Assembly (NCBI GenBank): GCA_965178125.1
Contig: OZ237737.1
Span: 1,488,001 to 1,552,000, forward strand
Reading direction: 5' to 3'
Length of the DNA: 64,000 nucleotides
Source: Bilabrum cf. latius
Taxonomy: Eukaryota
The notes beneath the pieces are model-generated. The model did no database searches, was not told where the DNA came from, and saw only the letters and a list, made by a program, of their open reading frames with translations. Of this stretch, positions 1 to 64,000 are shown one piece after another. The position numbers and the translations under genes were made by a program. Position 1 is the first letter of the stretch. Each line of letters starts with the position of its first letter.

Positions 1-2
1 CG

Positions 3-3000
3 GGCAACGTGAGCGACCTCATCTCGCGGATGCAGACGACTGAGAAGCCAAAGGAGAGGGAGTTCCTGGCTGGCCTGCTGTCCAACCTGGCCCTCGAGGA
101 CGAGTCAGCCCAGAAGATCGTGTCCGGCGGCGGCGTCAGCGCGCTGATGGGCTGCTTCGACAGCACCTCCAAGAAGACCGTCAAGGCGGCGTCCAAGGCC
201 ATCGGCCGCATCGCCGATGACCCCGCGAACATCGATGAGCTGGTGGACAGCGGAGCCGTGGGAGTGCTGGTGAAGACCATGGAGGAGAACAAGGGCGACG
301 CCGAGGTCTCCGCCTCCGTGGTGCCTACCCTCCTGCGCTTCGCCACCTCCCTGTCCAACGTGGCCAAGATTACGGAGCAGAGGGGCGTCAAGGCCATCCT
401 GCAGCAGATGGCAGAGCACCCCTAGGATGCCCAGCTGGCAGAGCAGGGCCTCGCTTTCATCGAGAACCTTCCCACCATCGGCTTCAGCACGTCCCTGCTC
501 GTGGGCGAGGGCGCTGTGCCGGCCACGGTGGCCTGCCTGAAGGCGCACCCCGACAGCCCCACCATCCAGCTGAACGGCGCCCGGTGCCTCGTGTACATGG
601 CCGACTGCGAGGACCACGTGGACAAGATCATGGCAGAGGACGCGCTCGACCACATCCTGGCCGTGCTGGCCAGCATCACCGAGGGCAAGGGTCGCATCGG
701 GGGGGGCGCTGGGGCCGCCTCGGGTGCGGGTGCCAGCGGGGCGAGCAAGGGCAGCAAGCGCCGCGGCAAGTCGGCAGCCGCTGCCAGCGCGAAGAAGAAG
801 GAGAAGAAGCAGCGCGAGCAGCTCGTCTCTACCTTCATGTACCTTCTGACGTCAGTGTCCATGTGCGACGACCACAAGACCTAGCTGCTGAACTCGGGCG
901 GCGTGGACACTGTGCTGTCTGCCATCGCCCACTTCGCCCGGCACGAGTCCGTGCGCGAGGGCGCCCAGGAGCTCATGCAGGCGGTGGTGGGTGCAGAGGA
1001 GGTCGCAGAGACACTCGCGGCGCTGGGGAGCACCCTGGAGTCGCTGATGAAGAGCAAGAGCGCGAGCGACGCGAAGGCCGCGATCGAGCAGATCGGACGG
1101 TGCAACGCCTTTTCTATCCTGCCCAGCAACGCCGACATCATCGTGCGGTCCGGTGCCAACGCCCCCAAGGGCGAGGTGGCAGGCCTGGGCGTGATCGTGA
1201 AGGCCATGATGGATGTGTCAAAGGCCGGGCACACCATCCCCAAGTAGGAGAGCATCCTCGCCGCGTGCTCCAACTGCCTCTTCGGCATCTCGTCTTGCGT
1301 GGGTGACGACGAGGAGCTCCGGGACATGCTGGGGAACAGCGGGGCCCTCGAGGGCGTCATCAAGGCCATCAAGGCCAACCCCAGGCTCAAGAGCTCCGTG
1401 GCGGCGGGCGTCGAGTTCCTCGACAAGTACGCCACCGTGGGCAATGCCTCCAAGGTCATCCTAGAGACGGGCGGCGTGGAGTCTCTCGTGGCTGCCATGC
1501 GCGCCAACCCGACCGACCCCAAGGTGACTCTCGCGGCCGTGGACACCATGTGCCGGCTCGCCTCAACGGACGAGGGCGCTATCGCTGTGGCCAAGCACGG
1601 CGGCGCCAGGCAGGTCGTCGCCGCCGTGACCTAGAACACGAGCACTCCGGGATTCCGGGAGCCCATGGAGCGCATGCTCAGCCTGCTGCAGCGGGTGGCG
1701 GGCACCAACGAGGGCAGCGACCAGCTGGTTCGCGTCGGCGGCGTGGATGCCGTGATCGCGGCTGCGGATGCCGTGTCGGACTCGGCCCGCGTGGCCCAGT
1801 CATCGAGCCGCGTGCTCGGCAGGCTGCTCATGGATGAAGACGTGGAGATGGCCGTGGACGACCTGGACGAGATGATGAAGCTCGTGCGCAAGGGCAAGGT
1901 GCCTCCGGTGGACCAGCTGAAGCCCATGCTCAGCCGGATGGGGCACATGGCAAACGTGGGCGACTTTGGCGCCTTCATCAGCAGCAAGGGCGGGGTGGAG
2001 AACCTCGCCAAGGTAATCGAAGTGGTCCTCAAGTCCGAGGACCCGGCCGTGCAGGAGGAACTGCTGCCCGTGGCGTTCCAGGCGCTTGCCAACTTGAGCC
2101 AGGCGCCTGGCGTGACGATCGAGGACGGGCTCGGCATTGACGCTCTCATCTCGCAGACGGTCGAGAAGGGGGTGGCCAGGACCGAGTCCATGGACTGCAT
2201 CCGCAGCATCGCCGGGAACTCCCCCGCCGCGGCCGCTCGGCTGGCCGGGGACGGCAAGACCATGGACATGGTCCTGGACGTGCTCAAGCAGAACATGAGG
2301 AACCCCGACATCGCGACCGCCGCTTTCGGTGCCATCTCCTCCCTGGCAGCACACGCCGACACGGCGGCCGTGGTGGCCGAGACGCAGGCCCCCCGACTCG
2401 TGTCGGAGTGGATCGACGACATGGACGAGGCCCCGCCGGCCGCCATCCAGGTCGCCCTGCAGGCCTACGGCAACATGCTGCAGTCAGAGGCGCTGAGGGA
2501 GCGCACCGTGGGCGACCACGCCCAGATGGATCTGATCAAGCAGGTGATTACGACCCACTGCATCGACGCCGAAGACGCTAACCCCGAGATCCTCCAGGGC
2601 ACCGTGCAGGTGGTCTCGCGGCTGGCTTCGGACAGCGCGTCGGTTGCCAAGCTGAACGAGAGCGGCGTGCTGCGCAAGGTGGTGCGCGGCGTGTCCTCCC
2701 ACAACGCGTACGTGCGGGACGCCGACGCCATGTCGCAGACCCTGGGACTCATCGAGAAGTGCGCCAAGGCGGACGAAGAGACTGGCCGCCAGCTCGCGGA
2801 CCAGGGCTCGCAGGAGCTCATCGTGGCTGCCATGAACGCCAACACCACCTCGTCCAGCGTCGTGGACGGCGGGGCTCAGGCGCTGCAGGCGCTGGGTGCT
2901 GGGGCCGAGGCAGGGCGGCTCGCCTTGGAGGAAGTCAACACGCTCACGCAGGAGATCGAGACGTCTGCGGAAACGACTGCCGAAGACGTGGAGCAGCTGG

Positions 3001-6000
3001 GCGATGCAGTGCAGAAGCTCTCGAACTTTATGCTCATGGACGGCGTGGTGGACGTGGAGAACGTGGACAACTACATCTCCGCGGTCAGCAACGCGATGAG
3101 CCTCATGTCGGACAGCATGGTTGCCAGACCGGAGCAGCTCGCCAGCGCAGTCTCCAGTGTAGGCCGCCTCCTGGGTATGTCGACCCAGATGGGTGCCCAG
3201 TCCGATGCGATCGGCTCGCTGGAGATGGTGCTGGACGTGCTTAGCGCAAACGACGAGCACCCAGCGGTGCGCGACGCTGCCATCCACACGGTGGGCAGCG
3301 TGGTGGAGGCCGGCGGGGCGGGAGTAATCCAGCAGCTGTCCAGCTTCGGCGTGATGGACGCCATCGTGGACGCCGGCAAGAAGGACGCGGGCAACCAGGA
3401 GTTGCAGGACCTGGTGACCGGCACTGTCAAGAAGATCACCACGGAGGCGAGGGCGTGCACCGCCACGCTCGTGCGGGCGGAGGGCGGTGCCACAGCGCTC
3501 GCCAGCGTGGTCGCGGCCAACGCCGGGGACCCTGCCGCGCTGAGCGCCACGGTCGAGTCCATCGGAGAGGCCGAGGGCGGACAGGACGCGCTGTGGCAAG
3601 TCCTGGCAGCGTCCAAGCAGGCGACCGTGTCGGACGAGGAGGGCGGACCCGAGGGCGCCACCGCTAAGTCAAGCGCACAGGCCAAGGAGGTGACCTGCGA
3701 GGCGCTGCGCGTGCTGTCGGAGAGCCTGCAGGCCAGCGACGTGAAGACCATCAAGGGCGACGCCATGCGGATGGCTGGACTGGCCGAGGCCATCGGTAGC
3801 GCGCTGGAGGCGCAGGAGGGCCTGACCGCCCAGAGCGACACCCGCTCTCGCCTGAACGCCCTCAAGCTGGCCGAGTTCTCGCTCAACCTGCTGGAGAGCA
3901 CCGAGGTGGAGAGGGACGGCGCCACGGAGATGCAAAAGAGGGGCGGGCTCACCAGCCTGCTGCGGCTGCTCGAGGCCAACCTGGGCGATGAGGAGACCAG
4001 TGCGAGGATCCTCAACATCCTGGCCAACCTCATGCGCTCCGGCGACGCTGAGGTGTCCAAGATCGTGGGCTCGGAGCAGAACGTCAAGCTGATCACCGAG
4101 GCCATCAAGATCCACCCAGGCGATGCCGAGGTGGCCTCCGGCGCGGTGCAGGTCCTCGAGCTGGCCCTGGAAGCCGTTGGGATGGAATCCTTTGGCATGG
4201 ATCGCGACGGTGTGCGCGCCATCATGGCCACGCAGGCTAGCCATGGGACCATGTCCGAGGTGGGCAGCGGCACCAGCAAGATCCTGCAGGCAATGGGCAA
4301 CAAGTTCTCGGACGAGCCTGCCAAGCTCATGCGCAGGCAGCTCTCATCCGCGGCCACCACCGCCGGCAAAGCGCTGCAGGCCGTAAAGGCGGAGCAGGGC
4401 GAGGACGGTCAGACCTACTACGTAACCGCCGCTGGCCGCAGCACGGAGGTGCCGCCCGAGATGGTGGAGCTCAGGGCCAGCGTGATGGCCGCGGCGGAGA
4501 CCGCCACCGCCCAGGACGCCGCGGAGGTGGAGGTTGTCCAGGAGGAGACCGTGAAGGGCATCACCAGCGTGCTCGAGAGCTTCTCGGGGGGTGACGCCGA
4601 CGTTGCAACCGCGTGCGCCAAGACCCTGACCAAGCTGTCCTCCAACACGGAGAACGTGGGGGTGATCGCGCAGGCGGGCGGCATCAAGGCTGTGATCAAG
4701 GCCATCCAGTCGCAACCCGACCAGACGGAGCTGCTCGAGGTGCTGCTGGTGCTCCTGGAGCGCATCTCTCGTGACGATCAGTTCAAGCAGCCCGTGGCGG
4801 AGCAGGGCGGCATCGACGTTGTCGTCAACATCGCGATCGGGCGGCACGTGGAGCGCAAGGAGGTCGCCTCCCGCTCCCTATCGGTGCTCGCAAACTGCGC
4901 CTTCAACAACGAGAAGCTGTGCCAGCTGGTCATTGACAAGGAGGGCGTGCCCGCCATCCAGAAGGCCATCATGGCCCACCTGGACGCCCCCCGCCTCGTC
5001 GAGAACGGCATGTGCGCCCTGTCCAACCTGCTGTACGCCAGCGACGACGCCAAGGTGATGATCGCCGAGCTTGCCGGCGAGATGGTGTGCAGCATCTGCG
5101 CCGAGCAGAGCTCCACCGACGCCGCCCTCGCCAAGATGACCCTGCGCGCCATCGGCAACCTCGCTTTCGTGGACCACAACATCCGGTACCTGGCCGACGA
5201 GCAGCACGCCACGGCAGCCATCGTCAAGGTCATGGCGGCGCATCCAGACGACGACGAGCTGCAGCAGACGGCCGTGGAGGTGCTGAGTAACTTCGCCGCC
5301 AAGGAGGAGACCGAGGAGGAAATCGCCGAGGAGCTCGCATCCATCCAGTACATCATGATGGAGGAGGGCGGCACCCAGGCCGTGCTGCACCTGCTGGAGA
5401 CCAAGCGGTCCAACAGCTCCATCGCCGCTGCCTGCCTGCAGTGCCTGCTCAACGTGTGCACGGACATCGAGGTGGCCACGATGCTGGCCGAGGACCAGAA
5501 CCTCCCCGAGAAGGTCATCGAGACTCTCACAGAGCTGGACTGGGACTCGGAGCTCGTCTCGCACTGCCTGCCGCTCATCGCCACAATGACCGACTCGCCG
5601 GTGGCGGCCAACGCCGTGGCTGAGCTGGACGGCGTGCAGCTGGTGCTCGACGCCATGGAGACGCACGGCGGTGACGCCGAGCTGGGCGAGGACATCTTGC
5701 TCAACGGATCCATGACTCTGTCCAACCTCGCCAGGTACCCCGACGCTCGCAAGATGATCCTGGACACGCGCGCTACCGAGCCGATGTTCGCGCTCATCGA
5801 GCAGCACGTGACTTAGAAGCTCTTCGTCTCCGAGATGCTCGCCGCCTTCACTTGCATGGCTCAGGACGACGAGCTGTCCAAGGTAATCGGGGAGTCCCTG
5901 CACATCGTGATGGCCGCCATCGACAGGTACAACGGGGACGCTGAGTTCCTGACCCGTGCCTTGCAGTGCATCGCCCTGCTGGCCTTCAACAGCGACAACT

Positions 6001-6716
6001 TGCGGTCCATCTGCCAGGCCAATGGCATCACCATCATCATCAACGCTGCGATCAACCACCCCGACAGCCGAGCCCTCATCCTCCGCGGCGTCAAGACCCT
6101 CGACTCTCTGTCCATGTCAAGCAGGGAGACGGCGCAGCTGGTGCAGGACGAAGGCGGCCTGGAGCTGATCTAGACCATCCTAGAGAGCTACCCCAAGGAC
6201 CTCGAGATCCAGCGGGCGGGCAAGAGCGCAGTTCTGTCGATGCAGGCGCTTGACAACCTCAACAAGTCGGCCAAGATCACGGCCAAGGCAGCCAAGGACG
6301 CCTCCAAGCGCAAGAAGGCCGGTGGCGGCGGTGACATCACCACGGATCCACTCAAGGAGGTCCGCACGATGCTGGCGGCGGGCAAGCTGATGAACGTGTG
6401 GAACGGGGGTAGCAAGAGCTCTTGCCACGTGCTCGTGTCGCCAGACTTCCGGTCGATCGTGTGGCAGAATCCCTCCAGCAAGGCCAAACTGGGCGCGATG
6501 GACCTCAGGACCATCGTGTCGGTGAAGAAGGGCACTGGAGAGGGGCACAAGCCCCGTCTGTTTGGACCCACCCCTGAGACGAAGAACTGCTTCACGGTGC
6601 AGGGCGAGCGGTCGTCGCTCGACCTGGAGCTCGCTGTCACCCGGGAGGTGGACTCGTGGGTGGATGCTCTAAACCTGCTGCTGGTGACCTTCAAGACCAA
6701 CCCGGCCGCGCTGTGA
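3..6716 (+). CDS. Large armadillo-repeat protein with a degenerate WW-like motif and a C-terminal PH domain (5'-partial, >2,230 aa; 6 in-frame TAG read as sense)
   Basis: ORFs 9-425, 501-884, 903-1247, 1299-1634, 1665-5816, 5835-6173 and 6240-6716 share one frame and are separated only by TAG at 423, 882, 1245, 1632, 5814 and 6171. ARM-like helices run across them (GGVSALM, GGIKAVIKAI, GGLELI*TILESYP). WW-like DGQTYYVT..GRST..P at about 4392-4460. PH-like end (LVSPDFRSIVW...CFTVQG.RSSLDL...WVDALNLL) at about 6345-6690. Ends at TGA, then composition drops to AT-richer sequence. Confidence 0.85.
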
Positions 6717-6897
6717 TTGGACTTCAGTTGATACGACAAGTGGTTTTTCGATTTTCGCATTTGTAACGAGCGATTTCGTCTCGTGCTAAAAAACCAGACT
6801 TGCCGAGCTTGCCGCCGAACCGTGGCACACATCTTGGCAAGGGTCGAGCCCCCGAGCCGCAGCGATTTTACGAACAAACTGTGCCAATTTAGGAAAC

Positions 6898-9800
6898 ATG
6901 AATGTTAATTATCGGAGCGCTAGGGTGCTCAATCAGCTTGACGGCCCTGCCAAGGCCTCGAGCAGCTCTCTGCAGCGCACGAGCCAAGAGGCAGAGCGTG
7001 CCTCTGACGAGAGCGCACACTCTCTACCTTCTGCGGCATCCCTGCACAAAGCTTCTACGGTCAAGTCGTAGCACCAGGGCCGGTTCGCTGCCATATCTGG
7101 CGCGGCTGGGACATCAAATCCTTTGGTACAGGCTAGCGGCAGGTCGACTGGGCGGTTGATGACGACGACAGAGGTAGTGGACGCCTCGAACTTGCGTCCC
7201 ACAGGTTCATCTGCCCGGTACAAAGCTTCTCTGGGGTTCGATAGGTGCCCTGCCAGTAGCACTTGCGCTGCCGGAAGCGCGGCGGCGGTGCTCGTCGTGT
7301 TTTGCTGTAGTTTAGCGATCGCTGCTCTGGTGCAGCAGGGAAAGATACGTAACGATGTAAAGAGCGGCCAATTGCACGCAGGAAGCACATCGATACAGGG
7401 TGACGATGGGCATGCGCAGGACGCCCTTGATATATACTAGCCTGTGTCATCATCAACAGCTGCGATGACCAACGTCTTCTTGACAACGCCAGTGAGTAGC
7501 AACTAGCAGCCTGGCAACGCGAGCAACTACGGCACCGATAGGAATTCCACGTAGCACATTGGTACCAGTGTGCTGAGCTCCGTGCGCGTGCCGGACCTAG
7601 CCAAGCTTGCGCAGGCTGAGAGGCAGCAGGGCGTTGAGGACCCTCTGGCGCACTTGCAGGTTCACGCAACGTTGCTGGGTGCAAGCAGCGAGGCTATTCG
7701 CGCGAGGATCGGTGCGGAGGCTCTTCGGCTGGCTTTAGAGGTGCAGCAGCTGCGGGAGGAACTAGATGCGAGCAGGGCAAAGGATTAGGCGAACGAGCGC
7801 AGGATGGAGCAAGTGCTGGGGCGCCTAGACCGAGCAGTGGCAGAGCAGGAGGCAGCGAGGCAGGAGCGCGAAGAGCTGCGAGCGGGCATCCTCTCCACCA
7901 ATGCCACGGCGGCATGGCTGCATGTGAGGGCCCTCGCCGAGGACAGGGCCAGGGAACAAGCGAGGCTCGAGGCGGAGAAGGCTGCCAACGCCACCCACGG
8001 GGGAGCGGGAGGCGGCGGCCCCGCGCTCCCCTCTCAGCTGGTGAACGCGAGCGACCCGGCTCAGTTCAACCGCACCATGACGCTTGTCATGGACACGCTC
8101 GACAGGCTCTTCCTGGACACGGCCGATGCCACGCAGGACGCCAAGAAGGCTGCCGATGCCGCTGCTGGGGCCTCAAACGCGAGCGCCATCGCAAAGGAGG
8201 GCGCCTTAAGGGCGCTCAATGAGTCCGCCCTGGCGCTGGCTGCTTCACAGAGCGCGAGCGGTGCTGCTTCCAGCGCGGTATATGTGGCAGCGGCGGCAGC
8301 CCAGAATGCATCGATCGCGGCAGCCACGGCCGCCGCTGCTCTCGAGCAGGCCTCGGCCGCTGGAAGCACCGTGCGTGAGGTCAGCCGAAGCCTGAACGCA
8401 ACGGTGCGAAGCGCAGTCGCCGACGCGGCCAGCCAGGCATAGGCGGCCGGCAGCGCCGCATCCGATGCGCAAAGCTCAGCCGATCGTGCCGTCCGCGCCT
8501 CCGAGGCGACGAGCGAGCTGTTCCAGTCCAACATCGGTGCTCTGTCGGGCGCCATAGGGGCGATTTCGACCACGCTGGCTGTGTCTCAGACAGCGACAGA
8601 GTAGCGGGTGCGGGAGGAGGGCACCTCTGGCGTGACCGGCGTGCGCACCTACCTTGCTGGCGTGGAGCCGTACAACGAGGCAACCCACGTGGGCCCGGGT
8701 AGCATCCTCAGCGTGCACGACCATGCAGACCTGGAGAGGACGATCGGCATGGGGGAGATATCAGCGGTGCTCAACGGGGTCCAGTTCCAGACGAGACACA
8801 ACGACTACAGCCTCAGGGACCCGGATGCTGGTAGCAACTTCGATTTCCCGCCGGTGCCGCCGGCCGTGCTGGCCAAGGGCTCCAACGTGACCGCACAGGT
8901 GCTCGAGATGAGAGAATGGTTTCGTGCGTGGCAGGAGGACGACTGGAGCGTGCGAGACTTCCGGCCGTATTTCCGGCCGGCCATGTGCGTGCTCGAGGGT
9001 GCGTGGCTGGAGGACGACCGCTTCAAGGACCCGTTCGACTCGGACCGGCACCAGATCGACGCGAAGTCTTGGAGCGACCTCTACAACAAGGCTTGGTACA
9101 CGTTCTCGAGCGGGGGCAAGCACTCGGGAGAAAACCTCAGCTTCATGCCCACCTCCATTCGAAACCTGGTGAACGGCACGTGGCCAATGCTGAGCCGGTG
9201 GGACTATCGCATCAAGTGCCACCGTCTCAAGGAGTCCACGCACCTGCCCCCCAGAGCATTCCGGGTGGCCAAGGACCTGAGCTCTTTGCTACAGGCGGCC
9301 ACCGCAGAGACGCCAGAGTCGCAGTACTTGTCCAGAGCCGCGCGCTTCGAGCTGCCGCCCTACCCCAACAACTTGAACGTGCCCACCCCTCGGTGGGTGG
9401 GCTGGACATGGATGGACGAGCTGATGCACGAGGTGCCCGGCCGGAAACGGTCGGGTCCCCTGCGCGACCAGACGGTGCTATCCAGCAACGGCGAGGTCGC
9501 CTACGAATACAACAACGCGTCCCAGCTGCTGGACACGTCCAAGTACACGAGGTACTACCGGTTCGGAGGGCTGGACGCGATGGGCAGGAGCGCGGTGAAC
9601 CGTGGCTTCAGGGACACGAACATGTACTCTGCCATGACGTCGGACGAGCGGGTGACCCCCGTGCGGTACACGGGCGACTCTGGCACGGACCAGTACGAGC
9701 AGAGGTGGACGTGGTCCATCCCGCTGGAGGTCATCTACCTTACCCCGCTCAACGACTGGAATCCCCACAACCTGACGTGGATGAGCGGCAGGGGAGCAAC

Positions 9801-10470
9801 GGGGCCCCACAGCAACCGAACGGGCAGCCTTACCGACCCCAACGACGCCTTCTTGGGCGTGGGCTACTGGCACAACTACAAGACCCCCGTGGAGCTATAC
9901 GAAGGATATGGGGTGGGCAACAATGGAGACCCCGCAGACACGTCGACTAACCCGAAGGGCGTGCTCGCGGGCGACGGCAGCATCAAGAAGGTGGTCGCGT
10001 CGGGGACGTGGGTTGCGCTCCCCGCGATCGGGTCCGGCGTGGGGCGGGTGAGGATGCGGTACCCCGTGGCTCCCGTGCACTGGCATGGCAGCACGGGGTA
10101 CAAGGAAACCAAGGCACTGACTCGGGTGGTAGATGCCTCGCTTGAGCAGCAGGGCAAGGGTGGCGTGGTGAGCGTGCTAGACGGGATCCGGGCGACCAGC
10201 ATCGGCGCTCGAGCGCAGCTGTCTGTGAGCAGCCCCGGCGCGCCGGTGCCGTCGCACATCCACGATATATTCATCCCGGGGGGCTGGGTGTCGCTGCTGG
10301 AAGACGGAAGCACGTTCACGGTGGAGACCTCCTCGGAGGAGGGCCACACTCACAGGGTTGCGATCAAGAGAGATCTGGCGACCGGGAACCTCGTGATGCT
10401 CACCTGCGATGGTACTGCAGGCGAGTGCTGGGATGGACATGACACCGTGCAGAACGAAAGGACTTCCTAA
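6898..10470 (+). CDS. Type II membrane protein (about 1,190 aa): N-terminal anchor, Ala-rich coiled-coil stalk and a large globular C-terminal domain of an uncharacterised family; 7 in-frame TAG
   Basis: One frame from aaacATG at 6898 (alternative start 7159) through TAGs at 7069, 7438, 7504, 7552, 7786, 8440 and 8602 to TAA at 10468. Hydrophobic segment AAAVLVVFCCSLAIAALV, many N-x-S/T sequons. Globular part contains SVHDHAD..TIGMGEISAVLNGVQFQTRHNDY, WTWSIPLEVIYLTPL, RMRYPVAPVH and a His-rich end (HIHDI...GHTH...CWDGH). Confidence 0.8.
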
Positions 10471-51188: not shown

Positions 51189-51578
51189 GCTGGGCTTCAC
51201 CGATGCCAGATTTACTTGGGAGGCCAGATAAGTCTCTCTCGTTGCTCTATCTGCGAGATATGGCGCGACGTTTGCAAGGGCAAGGCGTGGAGGCATTATC
51301 GTGCAAGTTTCGGCCATCCAATTCCCATCACGTACCTCCAGTATCGAAACTTGGTAAATATTATCCTTTGTGTGGAAGCTCTCCTGAATTGAAGGCCAAA
51401 TAAAGTTGGAGCAGGGTTGTTTCCCTGCGCAACTATGCGATCGTCGGTGCGCCGTGGGCAACGTTGCACTTGGTCGCAAAAAAGAAAGTGGCAAACTTGA
51501 AGCCCGTCACTCATTTGTCCCGATTATTTCTTAAATGAATGTCCCTGGTGGGCACTGTCAAGCTATCTGTTCAAACAA

Positions 51579-53034: not shown

Positions 53035-53171
53035 GGCCGGTAGCTACGCAGGTATATTTGACTTGTGAACACGATCAGGCTTTTGCTGAAACAGCTCGTT
53101 ACCAATTACTCATCACACCGGCCGTGGCATCAAGAAAACTGTTCACCGCATTATTGCAGCTTAGTTCCGCG

Positions 53172-53498
53172 ATGAATGGTATGGGGATGCCAATGGGAAT
53201 GCCAATGGGAATGGGAGGTCCTGGCATGGGGGCTCCCGGGGGAATGCAGATGGGAGGGATGCCCGCCGGAGCGCACCTCCGCGGAGGCCCGGGGTTGAAG
53301 CAGGCCGAGACTGAGAAGAAAGCAGAATATGCAACGCTAGGCGAAGTGGTTGAAGGTGCACGGGCTGAGATTGGAGGTCAGCTGCATTGGGTTGCGCACA
53401 ACGTTGGGCCAGCCATGCTTGTTGTGTTCGGGGCTTTCAATGCCGGTCTTTCCCTCACCGACTTGTGGGACACATACGCCAGGATCCCGTTTTCGTGA
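53172..53498 (+). CDS. Small hypothetical protein (108 aa) with a Met/Gly/Pro-rich N-terminus and one C-terminal hydrophobic segment
   Basis: MNGMGMPMGMPMGMGGPGMGAPGGMQMGG...VGPAMLVVFGAFNAGLSL. Fills the gap between uL3m and the next gene and ends at TGA. No family recognised. Confidence 0.55.
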   Translation: MNGMGMPMGMPMGMGGPGMGAPGGMQMGGMPAGAHLRGGPGLKQAETEKKAEYATLGEVVEGARAEIGGQLHWVAHNVGPAMLVVFGAFNAGLSLTDLWDTYARIPFS

Positions 53499-53605
53499 AC
53501 TGTCCGCGGGGCGCCCAAAGTTATACATGTATTGCGTGTCTTGAAGTTGCACAGAATGACTGGGAACAGGACAGACCGAACGAACTGGCGCAGTTGCCGC
53601 AATGC

Positions 53606-56600
53606 TCATCTTGACGCGTGCGCAGCCTGCAGCTGCCTCAAGAACTGCGCGATGACCCTGCTCCCCTGCACGAGATTCATGAGGCGCACGCTCTCGTTGG
53701 GCAGGTGCGGCCGGTCGCAGGGCTGGCCGAGCGGTATGTGCACCGCCCTGCAACCGAGCACCCTCTCGAGCATGGGAGCCGTCCGCATCGTGCCTCCCTC
53801 CTTGACCATCTGCGGGACCTGACCCCAGACCCTCTCCACCGCCCTGGCCGCCGCCCGGTAGGCCTCCCCTCTCAGGTCCGCCTGCCACCACCCCGCCTGG
53901 GACTCCTCGTCGGCCGACACCACCAGGCGGTTCCGGCTGCGCCGCGATGCGTGCACGTGCTCCAGGTGGGCCTGGATGGCGCCAACCACCAGTTCCGGTT
54001 TCTGGTCAGGCACGATCCTCGCCGACACGGTTGCAACCGCGCGGGAGCCGATGAGGCTGGCGTTCCCCGCGGTGGTGTCGACCGAGTGCACCGTGACTGT
54101 GGGCTCCCGCCAGCGCCGCGCCAGGGCCTGGGCCCCGGGACCGAGGCCTGCGGAATCGTACTGCGCCTGTGGCGCGGGGCTCAGACTACCACTGGCCCCA
54201 CCAATCCCCCTGCCCCAACCGCCACTGCTGCAGCCACCCCTTCTGGCGCCCGCCATTGCATTGTCCTCGCTGCTGCTACCCCTCCTGGCGCCCGCCATTG
54301 CATTGTCCTCGCTGCTGCTACCCCTCCTGGCGCCCGCCATTGCATTGTCCTCGCGGGTCTCGACACTCCCTGCCGATGGAGACGAGGCCGGACCAGCATC
54401 GGTAGCGGTCAGTTCCCTGTGTTCCCCAGCCAATTCTCTGTGTTCCCCAGCCAGTTCTCTGTACATGGCCGCCTCCTCAGTCCCCAGCGGCCGCACCGCG
54501 CCCCATATCCCGGGGACCGCCGGCCTCCCATCGTCTCCTGCTTGCAGAATACCAAGAAGGGCGCACAGGTCGACGAGTGGCTCGGCACCAAACCCGCCAT
54601 CCACGCCAGAATGCAGGCCGCCCTCGCCATCCTCTCCCGCGCCGGCATCGTCCCGCCCCTCCCCTTGCCGCGGGCTCCTGTCAGGCGACGGGGGCGGCTG
54701 CTCCATGCTGCGCAGGGTGGTGGCCGTGCCTGCGCACGCTGTGCGGCGGGCGGCATTCCCCGTCGCCGCGTCTGCTGCCCGTTGAGGCGCCATCGCGACG
54801 GCCCCTGGGACCTTGCCCCTGCTCACATCGTTGCCCAGCCACGGCAACTCAACGGACACCTGCATGCTGACGTGGCCTCGCATCCCGGTGACAAGGCTGG
54901 GCCTCTCGTCCGAGTGCCACAGGGAGTTGCACGCCACGATCGCGTCCACTCCGTCCAGCCAGCCCTTGCGGCGCGCTGCCTCCACGGCCTTGCGGTAGCC
55001 CACGGAGCCGTTCTCCCCCTCGCCCTCGACGATGAAGACCACGTCGGGCGGGGCCGCGCGATCGCCGTCGAAGCCCCTGTGCACGGCCACCGCGGCAAGC
55101 AGCGCCGCCAGGATGGGCCCTTTGTTGTCCGTGGCCCCTCGGCCGAAGAGCCTCCCGTCTCTTGCCACCAGCTGAAAGGGCGGGCTCTTCCAGGCATGGG
55201 CGGGGGCCTCCGGCTGCACGTCGTAGTGCCCAAGGAACAGCACCGTCCTGCGGCGGCTAGCACCAGCACCAGCACCGGCACCAGCACCAGCACCAGCACC
55301 GGCACCAGCACCAGCACCAGCACCAGCACCAGCACCAGCACCAGCACCAGCACCAGCACCAGCACCAGCACCAGCACCAGCACCAGCACCAGCACCAGCA
55401 CTGGCACCAGCAGCTCTCGTCTCGGCCGTCGAAAGATCCGTTGTACTCGTCACACGATCAGCGTCAGCGTGGATGAGTCGCCCCACCACCACGGGATTGC
55501 CGCCCTCCTGCCCCTGCACCGTACCGACGCTCATGCCGGCCTGCGCCATCCAGCCGCTGAGGAGGTCAGCCGCGGCCCAGCACGCATCCCTGCGCCTGGG
55601 GTCCTGGCTGACGCTCTGCACGGACACGAACTGACGCAGGAGGGACACCATGGGCGAGTGGTCTCCCGCGTGCAGGGACAGGGCAGCGTCAACCACAGGG
55701 AGGGCGCGTGCTGCCCCTCCCAGACCACGCGATTCTATGGGTGATGCCCCGTCTGCGGCGCGGCTCCCAGTGCCACCGTACGAGACCCCACCTGAGGCAC
55801 CGACTTGCAACCCCCCGGCGGACATCGGCAGCGAAGGGGGCACAACGCCGTGACCCATGCCGCCAACAGCCAGCGTACCCCCATCCCGACCTACGACATC
55901 GAGTCTGAGTACCGCCGCCCCCGCGTCCCCAAGCCCCGCCACTAGACGGATGGGGCCACCGCTGGCTGCACTAGTGCCGGCTCGGATGCCCGTTCCCTGC
56001 CTGACGGTGGTGGGAGCAGGACACAGTGCCTCAAGGCGGGGCAGGGCCGGTCCTGCCTGCGATGCCGCGCGCGAGCTGCGGCCGTCGTGAGAAGCCGCCC
56101 CTGCCCCGCTCCCGCCGGCGCCCCCGCCCCTTCCGTCAGCAAGCTCCATGCCAGCGACAAACTCGAGCGACGGCAGCGAGCGCAGCTCCACGCCGCCGTC
56201 GCTCGTACCGCACGCAACGAAGCGACTTGTGCATGGGCTGGAAGTTTCGGCGGAACTCTAGTAGGCTGTGGTAGAACGTAGCGATTGCGATGTAAAGCTA
56301 TCGTGCACTGCCAGGAGGCAGCTGACCTGACCACCTGTGCCTACAGCACTTGTACCTGGATCTGCACCTGCACCCGCTAGAGGTCCAGACGCAAGGCCAA
56401 GCCCCTCCTGTCCCCGCCCGCCGCCGGGCTGCTGCCCCCGCCCCCTGCCCCCCACATGCACGACCCGCCTGCAGTGCCCCTTGACGGGGTCCCACAGCCG
56501 CAGCGACCCGTCCATCCCCCCCGTGCAGAGCATCCAGGCGGGGCTGGGCCCCTGGGCAGGACGGGCGAAGGTCATGGCCTGCACGGGACCGCGGTGACCC

Positions 56601-57574
56601 GCCAGCTCCCGCTCCAGGGACATCTCGAAGCGGACTGTCCCGTCCACGCCGGCGGGGGCTGGTAGAGACAGGCTTCCGTCCGTTGGTGTGGCAGATGGCG
56701 CGGGGGCGTGCGCCGGGAGGAACGGGGGGCTGGCCAGCCGGCCGTCTTTCGCCATCGCCGACTGCCCTGACTCTGACTCTGGCTCTGGCCCTGGTCCTCC
56801 ACCTCCACCCCGTCCGCTGGCCTCTTCGGCGGGGCGTGGTGATCGGAGGGTGGCCGAGGCCCTCCAGATCCGCACCATCCCGTCGGTGCCCCCGGTTGCA
56901 ACCAGTGCGCGCTCCCCGGGGAGGGCTGGGGGCACGGCATCCAGAGAGTACACCAGCCCGTTGTGCGCCCGCACGCAACGGATGCAGCCGTCTAGGGCGA
57001 CCCGAAGGGGGCAGCTGCTGCCGCCACCACCACCACTCGCTCTGACTCCACTGGGTGGTCCGCTGGCCGCACGGTCCGATGGCTTGGGTACCTCCACGGA
57101 TGACACTCGCAGGGTCGCAAGTGCGACCACGGTGCTCTGGCAGCCGAGCAGAATCCCGAGCACGGTTTCGTTCGGAGTCACCCCGCCACCCAGCGATGGA
57201 GTAATATCTATCAACTTCGCGCACTGAATCATACCTTGTCCTATACGAAGCTAGAGCTTGCGGGTCAGCCGGGGGGCCCCCGGCAAGTCGGTGCGCTAAT
57301 GAAGCACGAACACGCGCGCCAGTCCGCCAGCGCAGCCGGACACAACGACGCTGGCTGAGCTACCGTTGATACGTTCAGACGACGATACGCATATGACAGA
57401 GTGTTCGTGAGCTGCCCCGTCGCGAGACTCTGCTATAAGGGTCTGCATTGAGGACAGCAATTGCAAGCTCCCGTTCGCCATTCCGAGCACCGTGCACCTC
57501 AGCGGATCGGGTGCGCCACAGGCGGATACTACGCCCTAAAATGATGGCATTGCCATTTCGATTTCATGCTGCAT
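53606..57574 (-). CDS. WD40 + M20 metallopeptidase fusion (Dug2-like architecture), about 1,320 aa, 4 in-frame TAG
   Basis: ORFs 57296-57490, 56258-57232 and 53606-56191 share a frame, joined by TAG at 57536, 57296, 57251 and 56258. WD repeats: AHNGLVYSL..ATGGTDGMVRIW, GHRGPVQAM..CTGGMDGSLRLWD. M20 motifs: GHYDVQP, GRGATDNKGP, EGEGENGS, LHSGVDGG, EGGT, HLPNE. Start uncertain (57574, 57556 or 57550); ends at TGA. Confidence 0.82.
54237..54354 (-). repeat. 42-bp coding tandem repeat, about 2.8 copies (EDNAMAGARRGSSS); a nearby 21-bp repeat (ELAGEHR) lies at about 54408-54461
   Basis: Near-identical copies of CTGGCGCCCGCCATTGCATTGTCCTCGC on the + strand, in frame inside the M20 region. Confidence 0.9.
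55259..55408 (-). repeat. Hexamer microsatellite (AGCACC)n, about 25 units, encoding (Ala-Gly)n
   Basis: Directly visible; in frame just before the TVLFLGHYDVQP strand of the M20 domain. Confidence 0.95.
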
Positions 57575-57729
57575 ATCGCAGGAATGCGGCTGATTGCTCG
57601 ATTCTGAAATCGAAGCATGTGACGAGGACTGCAAGTGCCTCGGCAGCGTTCACAAGAACAGTGCTGCAGACTTAGTCCGAAGCAGATTACTTCATTTCGG
57701 CGGCAAGTTTGCATTGAAATAGTACTAGC

Positions 57730-59754
57730 ATGGCTGACGGCGGGTTGTTGCCCCGTCTGAACTTGGAAACTGCAAGGAAATCTTTCGGTGTGGACCGCGA
57801 GGCCGCAAGCGACCCTTCCAAGCTAGAGTCTGCCGCAGAGGAGCAGCAAAACGAGCTGGAGGCGCTGCAGAGTATATATGGCGAGCTAAGCGACCGCGAA
57901 GCCAAGGTTCCTGGCCCTAAGTCGGGTGTGCTCGTTCTGGCGGCAGCCGAGGGTGTTGGGCCCAGGGTGTTTGACGTCGCGATCACTGCAGAGGACAACC
58001 CAGACGCGAAACCGGGTGACACTCCTGCATCTTGCATGCTCCGGGTGGCGTATTCCCCCTTGTATCCAGACAGCGCGCCGCTGCTCGAAATTGTCGGACC
58101 TTTTGGGGGGTTTCGAGCGAACGAGGGCATGCGAGACCGCATGGTGTCTGGCCTCAGCGACCTTTCTCGGCGCAACGTTGGCATGAGTCACATTCATCTG
58201 TTAGTAGACGAAGCTGCGAGCAGGCTGAAGGACGAGGCGAGGCTGGCGGCGGGCGGAGGGGGTAGTTTGTACGAGCAGCTTATGCGCAAGCGGGACGAGG
58301 AGCGCGCCGCGGTGGAGGCAGCCGAGAAAGAAGTCGCCGATGCCAAGAAGAGAGCCGCTGCCGATGAGCTGGAGAGGCAGGCGCGCGCGTCGAGGAGCGT
58401 GGCGGGGCTGAGCCAGGCTCGTCGCGACGACGCGGACGAGGAGGACGACGAGGACGGGCTGGCGGCTCGGGCCCGCCGAGGCTGGGGCACGCAGGTGACC
58501 AAGGAGTCCTTCGCGGCGTGGAGGCTGGGCTTCTTCCGGTAGAAGGTGCAGGCGTTCGTGGACGGTGGCGAGTCTCTGGCCGCATCGGAGAGGATGGCAG
58601 CCAAGTTGGATGGCGAGGACGGCGAGGACGGCAAGGGCGAGGGGGAGGGAGCCGAGGGGGAGGGGGGTGCGGCGGCAGGGGGCGCGGCGAAGTCCGCTGC
58701 TTAGGAGGCGCGGGAGGCGGCAGTGGAGGAGTTCGAGAACACTTCCAAGCTGCCTGTGCCCCCCACCGCGGAGGAGGCGCGGGAGCTGTGGAAGCGAGCG
58801 GCCGACAAGGGCATGGTGGAGGGCGGGCTGGGTACTCTGGTGGTGGGCGGGCTCGTGGTGCCCGGGTCCAGGCTGCCGCCCATCATGGGTAAGATGCAGG
58901 GAGAGCCCGTGTCTGCGTCCACCGGCAAGCAGCATTTCCTGGACTAGGCCGCCAAGGGGGGGGCTGGCACTATGGCTGTGGGGGCAGACCAGGCGGCGGC
59001 GCTTGCTGAGGCAGCCGCTGCCCTCAGAGCAAAGGACGCCGCTGCTGCCGCTGCTCCTGTGGTTGCAGGAGACGAGGACCAGAAGTAGGCAGGCGCTTCT
59101 TCCTCCGCTGCCTCCAAGTCGAGTTCCGGTGCCGGTGGTGCGGCTGGGGGGGCCTCGTTGCTGGAGGGTGTTGACGTCGGTCTCATGGAGGCAGTGGCGG
59201 CTGGACTGGGCGATGAAGGGGACTTGGATTTAGATTTGGAAGATGACGATGACCTGGATGATGATGATGATGATGATGGCGGCGGCGGCGATGGGAGCGG
59301 GGATTCGGGTGCGGGTGCATCCAGCGGGGCAGGTGCCAGGGCGCCTGCGCCCGCTCCCGCGGCCTCGACCAGCGGGGGAATCGAGCGATCCGTGTCTGGC
59401 TCGACTGGGGCAGCGACGCCGGGCGGCAATAGCGCGGCGGGCGAAGCCGACTACCGCGCGATGCTGGTCCGGACGGCCATCGAGGGCGCAGAGGCGGCTG
59501 CGATTGCCACGGGGGCGGGGAGGGAGGTGCTCGTGAGCGCGGTGGAGCGGGCCAAGACGCAGCTCGAGGAGCTCAGGAAGGAGGCGGAGGAAGGCACGGC
59601 TCCTGCATCTGCGGCTCCAGCAGAAGCGGGTGCTGGGGCGGGCTAGGGCAGTGCCAAAGAGGCTGACGAGGGCGCGGCGGGCGGCGATGCAGCCAGCAGG
59701 CGAGAGCGAAGACGCGCTCGTCGGGCGAAGCGGAAGGAAAAGAAGGCGTCATGA
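57730..59754 (+). CDS. RWDD1: RWD-domain protein, RWDD1/Gir2 (DFRP2)-like, with low-complexity expansions; 674 aa, 5 in-frame TAG
   Basis: EEQQNELEALQSIY, YPDSAP, VGM.HIHLLV (RWD); GTQVTKESFAAWR and TGKQHF (DFRP C-terminal motifs); acidic tail. TAG at 58540, 58702, 58945, 59086 and 59644; ends at TGA 59752-59754. Confidence 0.8.
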
Positions 59755-59841
59755 AGACAAACATTTCATTTTCATTTGGACTCGCGTAGCACAACAATCA
59801 ATATATCCCGCTAGAAAAGGCTGCTGCGTCACCCGACGAGG

Positions 59842-61368
59842 TCAGCCCGACGCCGACATCGTTTCCAGGTGCAGCAGAAATTTAACCAGAGTGCGCGCAT
59901 TCCTGTCGACCGGACATGCGTATACCTGCGGGCGAGTGGTGGAATCCAAGCAGCCGTTGCGGCCCCAAACCCCGTTGCATGAGGAGGCACCGTGACCGTC
60001 CAAGCGGGCAACTGCTTCGGCTGCGGGATGCTTGGAGTTGGCGCGTGCCTGGTCAAGTCGCTGCCCGTTACGAGCACCATTGGAAATATGCATGCGTTTC
60101 TGGTTTCTGTACAGCGTCAGCGGGTGAATGTACATCCGTAGCTTGTTGGCCAAGGCTGCGTCGAGCTGCAGCACCCGATCCGTCCACTCCGAGCACAGAG
60201 ACCTGTTGCCAAACCGAAGGATTCCGTCCGGCGTCCAAGCACCACCGCTGGCAGAGTCATCCTCCGGCAAGGCGGATGCATTGGTCACCACTCCCACGGT
60301 CCTCAAGACCTCGAGGGCGTGCCGCCGCACCTCTGGCCTCTACCACTGCTTGCTCTCGCCTACGAGAGCGTCGGTGCCAGCGACCGAGGGCGATGCTTTG
60401 GATGCCTGTGATACCACTAGTTTTGGTGCCTTGAGTGGCTTCCAGCACCTGTCCTGGTCGATGGTGACCCACGCCCCGGTGTCGGCGTCGACAAAGTGGC
60501 CGTGGTCGGCCCTCTCCTCATGCCGGCACCCGCTCAGAAAGAGGAACACCATGTATCTCGCCAGCGAAGCAAGGCACTTTTCGTACCTTTGATTGATCTG
60601 AAGGGCGTCCTTCGAGCTCCCTTCGGAGCTCCCGGCCAGCAGCAACCGGCTTGGAGCCGTGGTCCGTACGCACTGCATGGCCCGCGGCGGCGGAGGGGCA
60701 CCGGCCTGCACCGCCACATCGGTGTGCCGTGGATTTGTGTCCGGCGCTTGAGTGCTCTTGAATGCGTCCGCTCCCACGGGCTATTCAAAAGGTCGCAAAA
60801 GCTGTAGCAAACGCCCTTCATACCACATCACCGCCGACCCAGACACTGCAGCATCTCCACCCGGCGCATTCCCCCGCATCTCTCCGGAAGTCGGTTGCCT
60901 CAACACTGACGATAATATGGATCGAAATCGTGGAGGCCCTGCGCACTTTTTGAGAAAATCCCTCGCGCAGTTCGGGTTTGAATTGCTGCAACGACTCGAC
61001 ATCAATTTTCCAAGCGGTAGCGTCATCCAAGCGGTGCATGGAACAAGGCCAATTCCACCTAGCACCTGATCCAAGTGCCATACTGCGCTCTATCTCCAAG
61101 CTAGCTCTCCATTTTCCTACTATCCTGGCTTAAAGAGGGCTGCCGTGCTGTAGTTGCCGCCCGCTAGATAGCGGCTCCGCGACGTAAGCCTTACTCGTGC
61201 GGCGCAGCGACCCAAGAAGAATTCATCTACTTGATTTATATCAGGATGAGGGCACACGATGCCGTTGGTGCCGATGCCATCGTTGCGACCTGTTGTAGGA
61301 ACAGCGCAAAGCATCTGCCCGACGATGTAAGCTAGCAGTGGGGAAAGACGAAGAACGCGTCCCCGCAT
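59842..61368 (-). CDS. Secreted FAM20/four-jointed-like atypical kinase-fold protein, possibly a pseudokinase; 508 aa, 5 in-frame TAG
   Basis: ORFs 61120-61368, 60781-61074, 60340-60777 and 59842-60330 share a frame, joined by TAG at 61120, 61117, 61090, 60781 and 60340. Signal-like N-terminus; ALFKP, R*SAVWHLDQVLG..LVP, YMVFLFLSG and WVTIDQDRCW parallel the FAM20/PI4K-type motifs FKP, E.AA[FY]HLD..L..VP, .FDFL.GN and LDNGR.F. Ends at TGA. Confidence 0.62.
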
Positions 61369-61550
61369 GCCCTTGATTTAAGACAAATGCAGATGCTGCA
61401 TTGGATACGTAAGTGTTGCGAAAGTGGTGCTGTCGGTCCGCGGCGGCCCAGAGTTTGCATATCCGGAACTCATCCACGAGAGGCTGCCAAGATCCATGGT
61501 TCTGCTGAGCTTGATGCAGGAATTCAGCATCGCAGAGGTTGGTGCAGTGT

Positions 61551-63716
61551 TTAATCCACTCGAAGCGCAAACACCAGCCCCGCAGCTCCGAGGACGGTAG
61601 CCACGGCCAGGGCGCCGGCAGCGGCGGCGGCCGAGCGGTCCGCCCCGCTGCCATCGTCCGTATCATCATCCGCCTGAGACACCCCGTCCGACGTCGCCGA
61701 GAAGGACACCCCGTCCGTGGTACTCAGCAAAGCATCAGCCCGGTTTTCGATGAGGTACTGCTCGGTGTCCGGCATGAACAGCGTCGAGTCCGCAGCGTCC
61801 TCCTCCACCTACGCAGCTGCCGCTGCCGTGGCAGCCTCGCTCTCCAGCCTGAGCTGGAGCTCGATCTGCACCCCCTCCGAGTTAGACCGGTAGTCCGACA
61901 GCCGACACGCATGCTTGGGCCCCCCTACCTGGTTCATGATATCGGTGCAGGCCCGCTGCCCCACGATGGCCCGCTGCGCGTCGTCCACCAGGTACGACGG
62001 CTTGACGTTCTGGATCGTGATTGTCACGGTGGCGACGGTGCTGCCCCGGCACAGCCTGGGGAACTAATCCGCAGGCAGCTCGCAGGACTCCGAAATGCGC
62101 GACTGGAATGCCTCCGGACTGGTCCTGACCTCCCCTGTCCTGAAGTTCTCCCACATCGCCAGGGCTGTGTCCCAGCAGCACTCTGCCTCCTCGGACCACT
62201 GCTCCATCTGGTTGGCGCACTGCGCCGAGCACTGGGGGGACGCTACTTCCGGGTTGAGCGGGCTCCGGGTCCTCCTCCCGCACGACCCCGTGATCTCGTA
62301 CGTGGCGTAGAACTGCACGGCCAGGCTCTGGCTGAACACGAGCGCGCAGTACTTGTCGTCAGACGGCCGCTTCCCGCAACCGTACTGGGCCATCACGCTC
62401 ACCCCGAGGAGATCGACGTGGGCGGCCTGCTCCGCAAACGAGAAGAATGCGCGGGCGCAGGGGATGCAGAATTCGTCCAGGAAAGCCTCGCTCAGCTGGT
62501 TCTGCAGGGCCTCTTCGTCAGCGTCGGCCAGGAAGAGCTCCTCCGTCAGCACCTGCGGGAGGCAGAAGTCGGCCGGCACCCCGGCCTTGAGGCACACGAG
62601 GTCGTAGAGCACCTCGATGTCTTCCACGTTTGCGACCAAGTCGCCTGCGCCCGCCGCCACGCCCGCGGCCTCGAGGACCACGGAGGTAGTGGACTGGATA
62701 TTCGAAGAGATCAGGTTCCTGCACTCGTTGTTGCCGCACGCGTCCGTGACGAGCGCCCTGACGTTGTCGGGCAGGGGCGTATCCGTTGAGTTCCCCACCA
62801 GGCCGAGGTCTCGCATGATATCGGTGATTTCCTGGAAGCAGTACTCGCCCCCCTCGTTCTGCGTGCAGAGCACGTCCACCACGGTCACGGCCTGGGCCAG
62901 GGCCGCGGGGCACACGCCGCCTGACAGGCTGCCGTCCTCGATGGCGTCCATCGTTGACTGCATGGAGGCGTAGCATGCGGAAGTAGTCACGCAAAGCTCC
63001 CCGGGGTTCAGTTCGATGTTGCTGGAGAACGTCTGCTCGCAGGCCCGGTCCATGTCCTGAATCAGTGAGCAGCACGCAGTCGAATTGTCCCGATCGCAGA
63101 TGCTCTGGACCGGATCGTCGTCGATCTGGAGCCTCCGGCCCGGCAGTATAGAGTAAGACTGCAAAGGAATAGAAAAAGAAGCGTCGTGTGGCGTTGCCAT
63201 GGGATCACATGACTGTTGGGTGCTCGAAAGAGGGCCACAGAAGAACCCGACAGGATCCACCGGTAGGTGCCGCGTGCCTCCTCAATATCCACTGCCAGTG
63301 CTTGCATTCCGGGCACCCAACGCGCTGGCGGAGTCAATGGTAAACGACTAGAATGGTGGTATCAGTTGAGGGCAAAATTGGCTGCCATGATCTCATGGGT
63401 TTGCCTAGTTTTCTTTTGAGTCTGACCCGCCGACCGATTCGGTTTCCCCGCCGTTGTCCGGGGAAGCCAAATACAGCGGCACATACGGCAAAACCAAGGC
63501 CCACATTAGACAATTGCTATCGGAGTTTTCATCAGGTGGTGCACTCACACTGGGATTTAGAACGCGGGCGGCGGTTTGGCCGACTAATTGTCTGGCTTGC
63601 TGCACAGCATCTTTTGCGTCGCTTAGTAGGTGCTCCCCAAAAGATGGAGATGATCCGACAGCGCAATTGGCAAAGACAATTGCGGTTATCATAAATGATA
63701 CTCGTCCGGTCTTCAT
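61551..63716 (-). CDS. Cys-rich secreted, probably GPI-anchored surface protein; tentative join(63716..63549,63158..61551), about 590 aa, 2 in-frame TAG
   Basis: Exon 1 gives the signal peptide MKTGRVSFMITAIVFANCAVG. The main exon has three C.....G.[YF]C units (VLCTQNEGGEYC, LVCLKAGVPADFC, YGCGKRPSDDKYC), TAG at 62064 and 61809, an acidic linker and the C-terminal tail SGADRSAAAAAGALAVATVLGAAGLVFALRVD ending in TAA. The 5' structure is less certain. Confidence 0.7.
63159..63548 (-). other. Putative GT-AG intron (390 nt) in the GPI-protein gene
   Basis: Consensus donor GTGAGT at 63548 and strong acceptor TTCTTTTTCTATTCCTTTGCAG ending at 63159, both phase 0. It removes an in-frame TGA at 63282. 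A small internal exon cannot be excluded. Confidence 0.5.
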
Positions 63717-64000
63717 GGCTTTCAGGCGGAGTGCTGTGGTGGAAACGAACACCCACAGTCCACTGGTAGGCGCCGCGCGGACGAGTTGGCGGAACCACTG
63801 CTGTTGCACACGAGTGCAATAAAATTGAATTTGCCAAGAGAACAGACAACTCTGTTCAGTGTACGTTTGCTTGGGGTGATGCTTGTTTGAGTCTATGAGA
63901 AGGCTCAAGCCTACGGCGCCTCATTGGTTCGTACATTGGCTGTCATGAACAGAGCGTGGAAGCGACAATGGCTGGAACGAGCGTACAACAGAGGCGGCGA

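Follow-up and report, generated by a model that had tools for sequence, protein, structure and literature searches.

The codon UAG appears to have changed completely from stop to sense, most likely glutamine, in the nuclear genome sampled by a 64,000-nucleotide (nt) stretch of contig OZ237737.1 (assembly GCA_965178125.1, deposited as Bilabrum cf. latius; positions 1,488,001 to 1,552,000 of the forward strand), hereafter the window. Nine gene models on both strands, which together comprise 20,211 codons when TAG is read through, contain 86 in-frame TAG codons and not one internal TAA or TGA. We consider it probable that the window is nuclear DNA of an aerobic protist, intron-poor and rich in guanine and cytosine (GC), that translates UAG as an ordinary codon. 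The gene ends support UAA and UGA as remaining stops, and if UAG is glutamine the code is that of NCBI translation table 15.

In-frame TAG codons and gene ends

The gene models, their introns and their TAG codons are as follows, in window coordinates (Pfam E-values after family names; UTR, untranslated region; GC3, GC content at third codon positions; X1 to X12 are public sequencing runs described below).

3..6716, + strand: ARM-repeat protein gene, 5'-truncated by the window edge; ARM_ARMC5 1.2e-39; six in-frame TAG with first bases at 423, 882, 1245, 1632, 5814 and 6171; ends in TGA
6790..10470, + strand: g2, open only if TAG is sense; seven in-frame TAG; ends in TAA
10619..13651, - strand: two-exon gene of a conserved family without a name; three coding TAG (12076, 11992, 11929); ends in TGA
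12320..12451, - strand: putative intron of the preceding gene, 132 nt, GTAAGA...TCGCAG; one TAG and one TAA, non-coding
14553..51188, - strand: giant gene, a single exon of 36.6 kilobases encoding 12,211 residues; 49 in-frame TAG; ends in TGA
51251..51335, - strand: intron in the 5' UTR of the giant gene, 85 nt, GT..AG; skipped by one X5 contig only
51579..52382, - strand: exon 2 of the mitochondrial ribosomal protein gene uL3m; Ribosomal_L3 1.8e-20; ends in TGA
52383..52485, - strand: spliceosomal intron of uL3m, 103 nt, GT..AG; skipped by contigs in X5, X6 and X7
52486..53034, - strand: exon 1 of uL3m, from the first ATG within the transcript contigs; N-terminal extension; four TAG
53606..57649, - strand: WD40 and peptidase M20 fusion gene; Peptidase_M20 7.4e-22, WD40 2.8e-10; four TAG; ends in TGA
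57718..59754, + strand: RWD-domain gene; RWD 6.4e-09; five in-frame TAG; ends in TGA
59842..61377, - strand: g9, the weakest model, defined by an open frame only; five in-frame TAG including a TAG-TAG pair; ends in TGA
61551..63281, - strand: g10, cysteine-rich with a C-terminal hydrophobic stretch; two TAG; GC3 0.84; ends in TAA

All nine genes contain TAG, which accounts for 0.43% of codons. A single TAA or TGA is present per model, always terminal (seven TGA, two TAA), and no model ends in TAG. If TAG is read through, 88 TAGs are counted in the raw stop-to-stop frames, and two of these TAGs lie outside coding sequence: one in the 132-nt GT..AG intron of the two-exon gene, which also contains the sole other in-frame TAA, and one in the 5' UTR upstream of the uL3m start. 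With these two removed, our recount agrees with a first-pass annotation of the window, made from the letters alone, which had reported 86 in-frame TAGs in nine genes on both strands, no internal TAA or TGA in about 20,000 codons, and no model ending in TAG. The start codons of g2, g9, g10 and the M20 and RWD models are unconfirmed, and a few TAGs near their 5' ends may be non-coding.

The giant gene provides the largest continuous sample. Under the standard code the longest open frame of the window is 1,393 codons, and it stays at that length if TGA or TAA is made sense; with TAG as sense it reaches 12,317 codons, in the frame of the giant gene. That frame holds 49 TAG and no TAA or TGA before its terminal TGA, against about 253 expected (log10 P about -110). 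The two off-frames contain 206 and 246 TGA, 26 and 29 TAA, and 52 and 76 TAG, which makes TAG about as frequent in frame as off frame. The in-frame TAGs are spread along the gene, up to 11,526 residues in. The GC pattern by codon position persists through the TAGs (0.65/0.43/0.90 in the ARM gene), and g2 has values of 0.61/0.53/0.77, in a window of 60-67% GC.

Conserved features on either side of TAG codons tell the same story. The first-pass annotation had pointed to a TAG within the uL3m motif KRWNFAG-TAG-PASHG, which we place at 52071-52073 on the - strand, inside the L3 domain. Spliced uL3m has 450 residues and five TAG, and across its exon junction (...RMALTVIK-LERCQVVQ...) the L3 domain is unbroken. 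At the other end of genes, the C-termini of the three conserved genes that can be aligned lie 0-11 residues from the ends of their homologues and are followed by TGA in all three; the C-terminus of the ARM protein, FKTNPAAL, is conserved and common to its homologues. Frequent TAG at true C-termini, which had been named as evidence that would overturn the reassignment, is thus not what these homologues reveal.

Introns and domain types (ARM, WD40, RWD) identify the window as eukaryotic nuclear DNA, as first annotated; two introns are backed by spliced contigs, while for the 132-nt intron the boundaries and the maintained frame are read from the sequence. A bacterial or phage origin was rejected on the same grounds. 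The first annotation also noted a mitochondrial presequence, and the gene for the mitochondrial ribosomal protein uL3m does encode an N-terminal extension.

Independent runs and spliced contigs

Part of positions 50001-60000 is contained in 12 public runs, five of which have half or more of its sequence words. We compared contigs of runs X1, X5, X6 and X7, from three studies, with positions 35301-55290 of the window (X8-X12 were not used), and found no differing letter in any of the four. Two of these contigs, of 62,198 nt in X1 and 33,930 nt in X5, cover the giant gene with 0 differences. Assembly error, with CAG or GAG in place of TAG in the reads, had been proposed as one way in which the reassignment might fail, and the identity of independent runs speaks against it.

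The interval 52383-52485 is skipped by one contig each in X5, X6 and X7, which come from two studies other than that of X1. The skipped sequence has the ends CT..AC on the + strand, and the shorter flanking side is 255 nt. The X1 contig is continuous through the interval, which, skipped in three runs and present in the fourth, must be an intron of uL3m of the spliceosomal type. Positions 51546-52382 are unchanged in the spliced contigs, which retain the TAG at 52071-52073, contrary to the possibility, also raised at first annotation, that the TAGs are edited or spliced out. A second skip, of 51251-51335 in X5, likewise has the ends CT..AC on the + strand. From their spliced form and from contig ends that fall at gene boundaries, we infer that the spliced contigs of X5-X7 are transcripts.

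Three side observations concern these runs. The intergenic gaps have no contig cover in X5-X7, which is a weak hint only. The 33,930-nt X5 contig covers the giant gene from 48087 downward, and from its length we expect it to extend slightly beyond the stop codon; it resembles a transcript of almost full length. A 34-nt stretch within the giant gene (50394-50427) also occurs, with three mismatches, in an unrelated X1 contig whose depth is 327; the match raises the depth of that bin and probably reflects a short low-complexity motif common to both.

The window sequence occurs in X1-X7 under three organism labels and in three studies, with no differences where compared. Either one organism goes under several names, or it accompanies or contaminates other cultures or samples.

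A relative that reads through TAG

When 1,200 residues of the giant protein were used to query 1.84 billion representative proteins, short proteins at 42-87% identity were recovered. In both cases that could be checked, the short relative stops just before a TAG of the window or of its own DNA. Several of them map to one metagenome contig of 7,551 nt (L001; GC 56%), whose reading frame contains 19 TAG and no TAA or TGA in 2,516 codons, with 8 and 20 TAA and 55 and 60 TGA in the off-frames. At least one relative therefore reads TAG as sense. Over residues 1,899-4,433 of the giant frame, L001 is 58% identical (1,449 of 2,495 positions), and at most one TAG site is common to the two. Among presumed Gln codons, TAG has a share of 12% in the giant gene (CAG 274, CAA 79, TAG 49) and 23% in L001 (CAG 40, CAA 23, TAG 19).

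A closer fragment, P0182 (92 residues, 86% identical), carries Gln at both TAG sites that it spans (2656 and 2702) and ends immediately before a third. Further relatives from the environment number at least three, at 46-86% protein identity; they are present as fragments, at least some of them cut at TAG. Neither prokaryote genome contigs nor viral contigs yielded a relative when queried with 4,894 of the giant protein's residues.

The ARM protein has 15 homologues at about 41% identity, Cafeteria included. All but one of these, Cafeteria's among the 14, were called full length (2,068-2,528 residues), and their lineages presumably lack in-frame TAG in that gene.

The amino acid encoded by UAG

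To decode UAG we computed the likelihood of the homologue residues under each candidate residue at 24 TAG sites, with codons of known meaning in these alignments as calibration. The correct residue was recovered for 98.8% of 24-site subsamples with BLOSUM62 and for 99.8% with matrices derived from the alignments themselves; with the codon in question left out of the matrix, decoding succeeded in 188-199 of 200 subsamples for each of CAG, TCG, AGC, AAC and GAG. The empirical matrix ranks Gln first, followed by Asn (-5.8 log units), Ser (-7.1), Thr (-11.1) and Glu (-12.4), and Gln wins 1,451 of 2,000 site bootstraps (73%). Leu is outside the best eight residues, more than 19.5 log units below Gln, and wins a single bootstrap. 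On this sequence evidence UAG probably encodes glutamine. The equivalence to table 15 proposed at first annotation is accordingly the best-supported decoding in its amino acid, and it is unproven, with Ser and Asn as runners-up.

Direct comparison with L001 gives a similar picture. Opposite 14 window TAG sites, L001 has Q four times, S four times, N twice, and G, L, R and H once each; Q exceeds its 2.5% background (P = 3e-4), and the excess of S is not significant (P = 0.056). In the other direction, the window residues opposite 17 aligned L001 TAGs are S four times, Q three times, N and A twice each, and T, E, D, R, V and K once each. The profile at TAG sites resembles that of window CAG codons, opposite which L001 has Q in 31%, R in 13%, S in 12%, E in 10% and TAG in 6% of cases. 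Three of the four Ser codons opposite window TAG are TCG, a single mutational step from TAG, which can explain the Ser excess.

Individual alignment columns vary. At the uL3m TAG column, Q is found in most of the closest eukaryotic matches and in five of the seven sequences of the clade that contains the window in the uL3m tree. The six ARM columns read E6/D4; mixed; Q5/L3; A10/S4; N5/S3/D3; and E12/L1, and those of the two-exon gene are mixed, mixed and D9/R3.

The same approach applied to other codons returned the standard residue for 60 of 61 sense codons when each was left out of the matrix. The sole exception was ATA, which at seven sites in the orthologue alignments decoded as V over I by 2.3 log units, most likely by chance at so small a number of sites.

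Two other scoring schemes were rejected. BLOSUM scoring of the internal repeats of the giant protein, which put S first, gave the right residue for CAG in just 6 of 100 subsamples. The other scheme, a product of column emissions without background correction, which put S, A and E first, was biased: in calibration CAG, ATC, ATT and ATG were each correct in 0 of 100 subsamples.

Lineage

The best matches of both uL3m and the ARM protein are environmental sequences. The closest named matches are from Cafeteria roenbergensis, at 44% (uL3m) and 41% (ARM) identity, joined for uL3m by Chrysoparadoxa; for the ARM protein Cafeteria is the only named homologue. The long C-terminal extension of uL3m is shared, at 98-99% query cover, by four matches only, Cafeteria among them. 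The uL3m phylogeny suggested by the first-pass annotation was built with FastTree from 45 sequences (the top 31 matches and 14 named ones, of 120). In this single-gene tree the window stands beside an environmental sequence within the Cafeteria clade, away from green plants and bacteria. Our best guess, tentative and drawn from these protein comparisons, is that the organism is a heterotrophic stramenopile distantly related to Cafeteria.

A broader proposal, which we find possible and somewhat short of an even chance, is that this is the first nuclear stop codon reassignment in stramenopiles, an old, clade-wide change of UAG to Gln in an undescribed group of GC-rich heterotrophic protists (about 63% GC). 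If that proposal is true, AT-driven 'codon capture' cannot explain a change at about 63% GC, and the TAG share of Gln codons would have risen from 12% to 23% as GC fell from 63% to 56% across the two sampled members.

Alternative explanations

Several observations weigh against our interpretation. Opposite TAG, Ser is about level with Gln in both directions of the L001 comparison (4 against 4, and 4 against 3). BLOSUM62 gives Q 0, S -1.0, N -3.0 and E -3.8, with a margin between Q and S of 1.0, and the bootstraps lost by Gln include 294 for Ser and 228 for Asn of 2,000, which makes the Gln call moderate. Across all 120 uL3m homologues the TAG column has L 58, Q 27, G 22 and M 13; in the ARM protein, site 2057 has E in 12 of 13 homologues and site 544 has A or S in 14 of 14. 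The repeats within the giant protein do not discriminate between residues (empirical R 0, N -0.5, Q -0.6, S -1.8). The gene ends seen are only nine, and an occasional TAG terminator is possible. The run labels are guesses ('RNA?' for X6 and X7, 'RNA? (probably DNA)' for X5), and none of the 12 runs is recorded as RNA. The placement near Cafeteria uses two genes at 41-54% identity and one single-gene FastTree phylogeny without inspected support. A tRNA gene search of the window found none, and the tRNA and eRF1 steps of the mechanism proposed below are ones that we infer.

The points on serine bear most directly on a reading in which UAG is sense but encodes Ser, as in Scotinosphaera, or Asn. 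We judge these two residues together unlikely, and any other residue still less likely. A nuclear code with UAG = Ser has been published (excerpts of PMC11687900), and Ser stands opposite TAG at 4 of 14 and 4 of 17 positions, a single log unit behind Gln with BLOSUM62; against this stand the deficits of 7.1 log units for Ser and 5.8 for Asn under the empirical matrix. For a serine codon, at least four Gln in 14 sites has a P of about 6e-4, and only four Ser a P of about 0.06; three of the four opposing Ser codons, moreover, are the TCG neighbors of TAG, and P0182, at 86% identity, has Q at both of its sites. The lineage evidence also leads away from Scotinosphaera, with uL3m outside the green-plant clade and the sole named ARM homologue from Cafeteria. 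A code in which both UAR codons (UAA and UAG) are Gln, of the table 6 type, disagrees with the absence of in-frame TAA from 20,211 codons and with the two models of nine that end in TAA.

It is quite improbable that UAG is ambiguous, sense inside genes and a context-dependent terminator of some, a reading that would be compatible with UAG = Gln. Codes of this kind are described for Condylostoma, karyorelict ciliates and Blastocrithidia, and nine gene ends is a small sample in which to meet a TAG terminator; none of the nine is TAG, three were checked against homologues, TAG runs along whole genes as far as residue 11,526 of the giant frame, and TAA and TGA are available as terminators. We give hardly any weight to the idea that the TAGs are untranslated, as assembly or sequencing errors, edited positions, hidden introns or pseudogenes under the standard code, for which we found no supporting evidence. 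Contigs of four runs from three studies agree with the window letter for letter, TAG is kept in spliced contigs, the frames stay open for TAA and TGA over 20,211 codons with codon-position GC maintained, and the 58%-identical L001 has the same pattern at different sites; introns would bring TGA or TAA and a frame shift, and the real 132-nt intron does contain a TAA. Site-specific recoding of the pyrrolysine or selenocysteine type was rejected because TAG is 0.43% of codons, is found in all nine genes and is as frequent in frame as off frame, and leaky readthrough was rejected because a single mRNA carries 49 UAG.

Comparison with known codes and proposed mechanism

Nuclear codes in which UAG and UAA differ in meaning include, in excerpts of PMC11687900, those of the uncultured rhizarian 'exLh' (UAG = Leu), Iotanema spirale (Gln) and Scotinosphaera (Ser), and among ciliates those of an uncultured lineage (UAA = Lys, UAG = Glu), phyllopharyngeans (Leu; Gln twice) and Protocruzia tuzeti (Gln). 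Protocruzia tuzeti and two phyllopharyngean lineages share the full table 15 pattern of TAG = Gln with TAA and TGA as stops (same excerpts); the window differs from ciliates in its 60-67% GC, its genes of up to 36.6 kilobases, its chromosome-scale contig and its stramenopile-leaning homologues. Iotanema, a fornicate, resembles the window organism as a non-ciliate protist in which UAG alone has changed, apparently to Gln, and UAA is still a stop (same excerpts). The rhizarian 'exLh' is also a UAG-only nuclear reassignment (same excerpts), but to Leu, which here is more than 19.5 log units under Gln. Scotinosphaera, a green alga with UAG = Ser and UAA as stop, likewise represents a UAG-only nuclear change outside ciliates, and its residue is the main competitor here; yet Ser scores 7.1 log units under Gln with 294 of 2,000 bootstraps, and in the uL3m tree the window falls outside the green lineage. 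Code-15 phages (crAss-like, Lak) also read TAG as Gln, but their genomes lack introns, whereas the window has spliceosomal introns and eukaryotic genes, and the viral contigs searched with part of the giant protein held no relative.

We found no nuclear UAG reassignment in a stramenopile and no matching organism in a literature of incomplete coverage, made up mostly of abstracts and without supplements. The suggestion at first annotation that the case may be an undescribed, independent reassignment stands to that extent, and its novelty depends on that partial coverage alone. The kind of code is already known, as table 15, and the lineage appears to be new. A description of the organism may be in preparation or in print elsewhere, the runs dating from 2025.

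Iotanema is an anaerobic metamonad, a group not known to have mitochondrial ribosomes. The window organism encodes uL3m, with its closest named homologues in the stramenopile Cafeteria, and on these grounds the change would have arisen independently of that in Iotanema. We take it to be independent of the other known cases as well.

As a mechanism, we propose by analogy with other reassigned codes that UAG would be read by a tRNA of its own with a CUA anticodon, which probably arose from tRNA-Gln(CUG) through a single anticodon change, and that eRF1 would have lost recognition of UAG. No tRNA genes or Rfam families were found in the 64-kilobase window, and the eRF1 gene lies outside it. Decoding should be efficient rather than leaky, because one mRNA of 12,211 codons must pass 49 UAG; at 90% readthrough per site, the computed yield of full-length product is under 1%.

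Reassignment of UAG while UAA stays a stop is rare in nuclear codes. A further independent case would add a data point on the uncoupling of UAG from UAA and would bear on eRF1 specificity and on the origin of suppressor tRNAs, here in a GC-rich, aerobic and probably stramenopile lineage with environmental relatives that share the code. There is also a practical consequence: standard gene callers break such genes up, the relatives' proteins are present in public sets solely in fragmentary form, and both genome and metagenome bins of these organisms need annotation with table 15 or an equivalent.

Other features of the window

The giant protein is predicted to be secreted or membrane-bound, with a signal-peptide-like start and C-terminal transmembrane segments. 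It contains 12 copies of a glycine-rich repeat of about 260 residues, which has no Pfam family, together with cysteine-rich repeats. Across 9,783 of its residues, Pfam matched Big_5, an Ig-like domain (1.2e-39), and F5/8 type C at borderline significance, with Reelin below threshold and nothing else. For a second repeat module, a profile hidden Markov model gave only five copies, and a MAFFT alignment of the linker segments was used instead.

The two-exon gene at 10619-13651 has 38 homologues, and blastp alignments to the long ones span both exons. The family is without a Pfam model and has homologues in environmental eukaryotes, in the abalone Haliotis asinina and in Actinobacteria-type metagenome bins; the layout of the protein is enzyme-like in appearance.

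No Pfam family matched g2 or g9. The model of g9, with its five TAG, rests on the open frame alone, no homologue search having been made. The C-terminal part of g2, about 600 residues (8700-10470, + strand), is rich in Trp, Tyr and His, again with no Pfam match. In the WD40 and M20 fusion gene, a GC-rich simple repeat at about 55250-55410 encodes a long Ala-Gly run, a motif abundant in the data sets (in the last bin, contig depths sum to 1,200-8,900), and the same gene holds three tandem copies of the 14-residue unit EDNAMAGARRGSSS.

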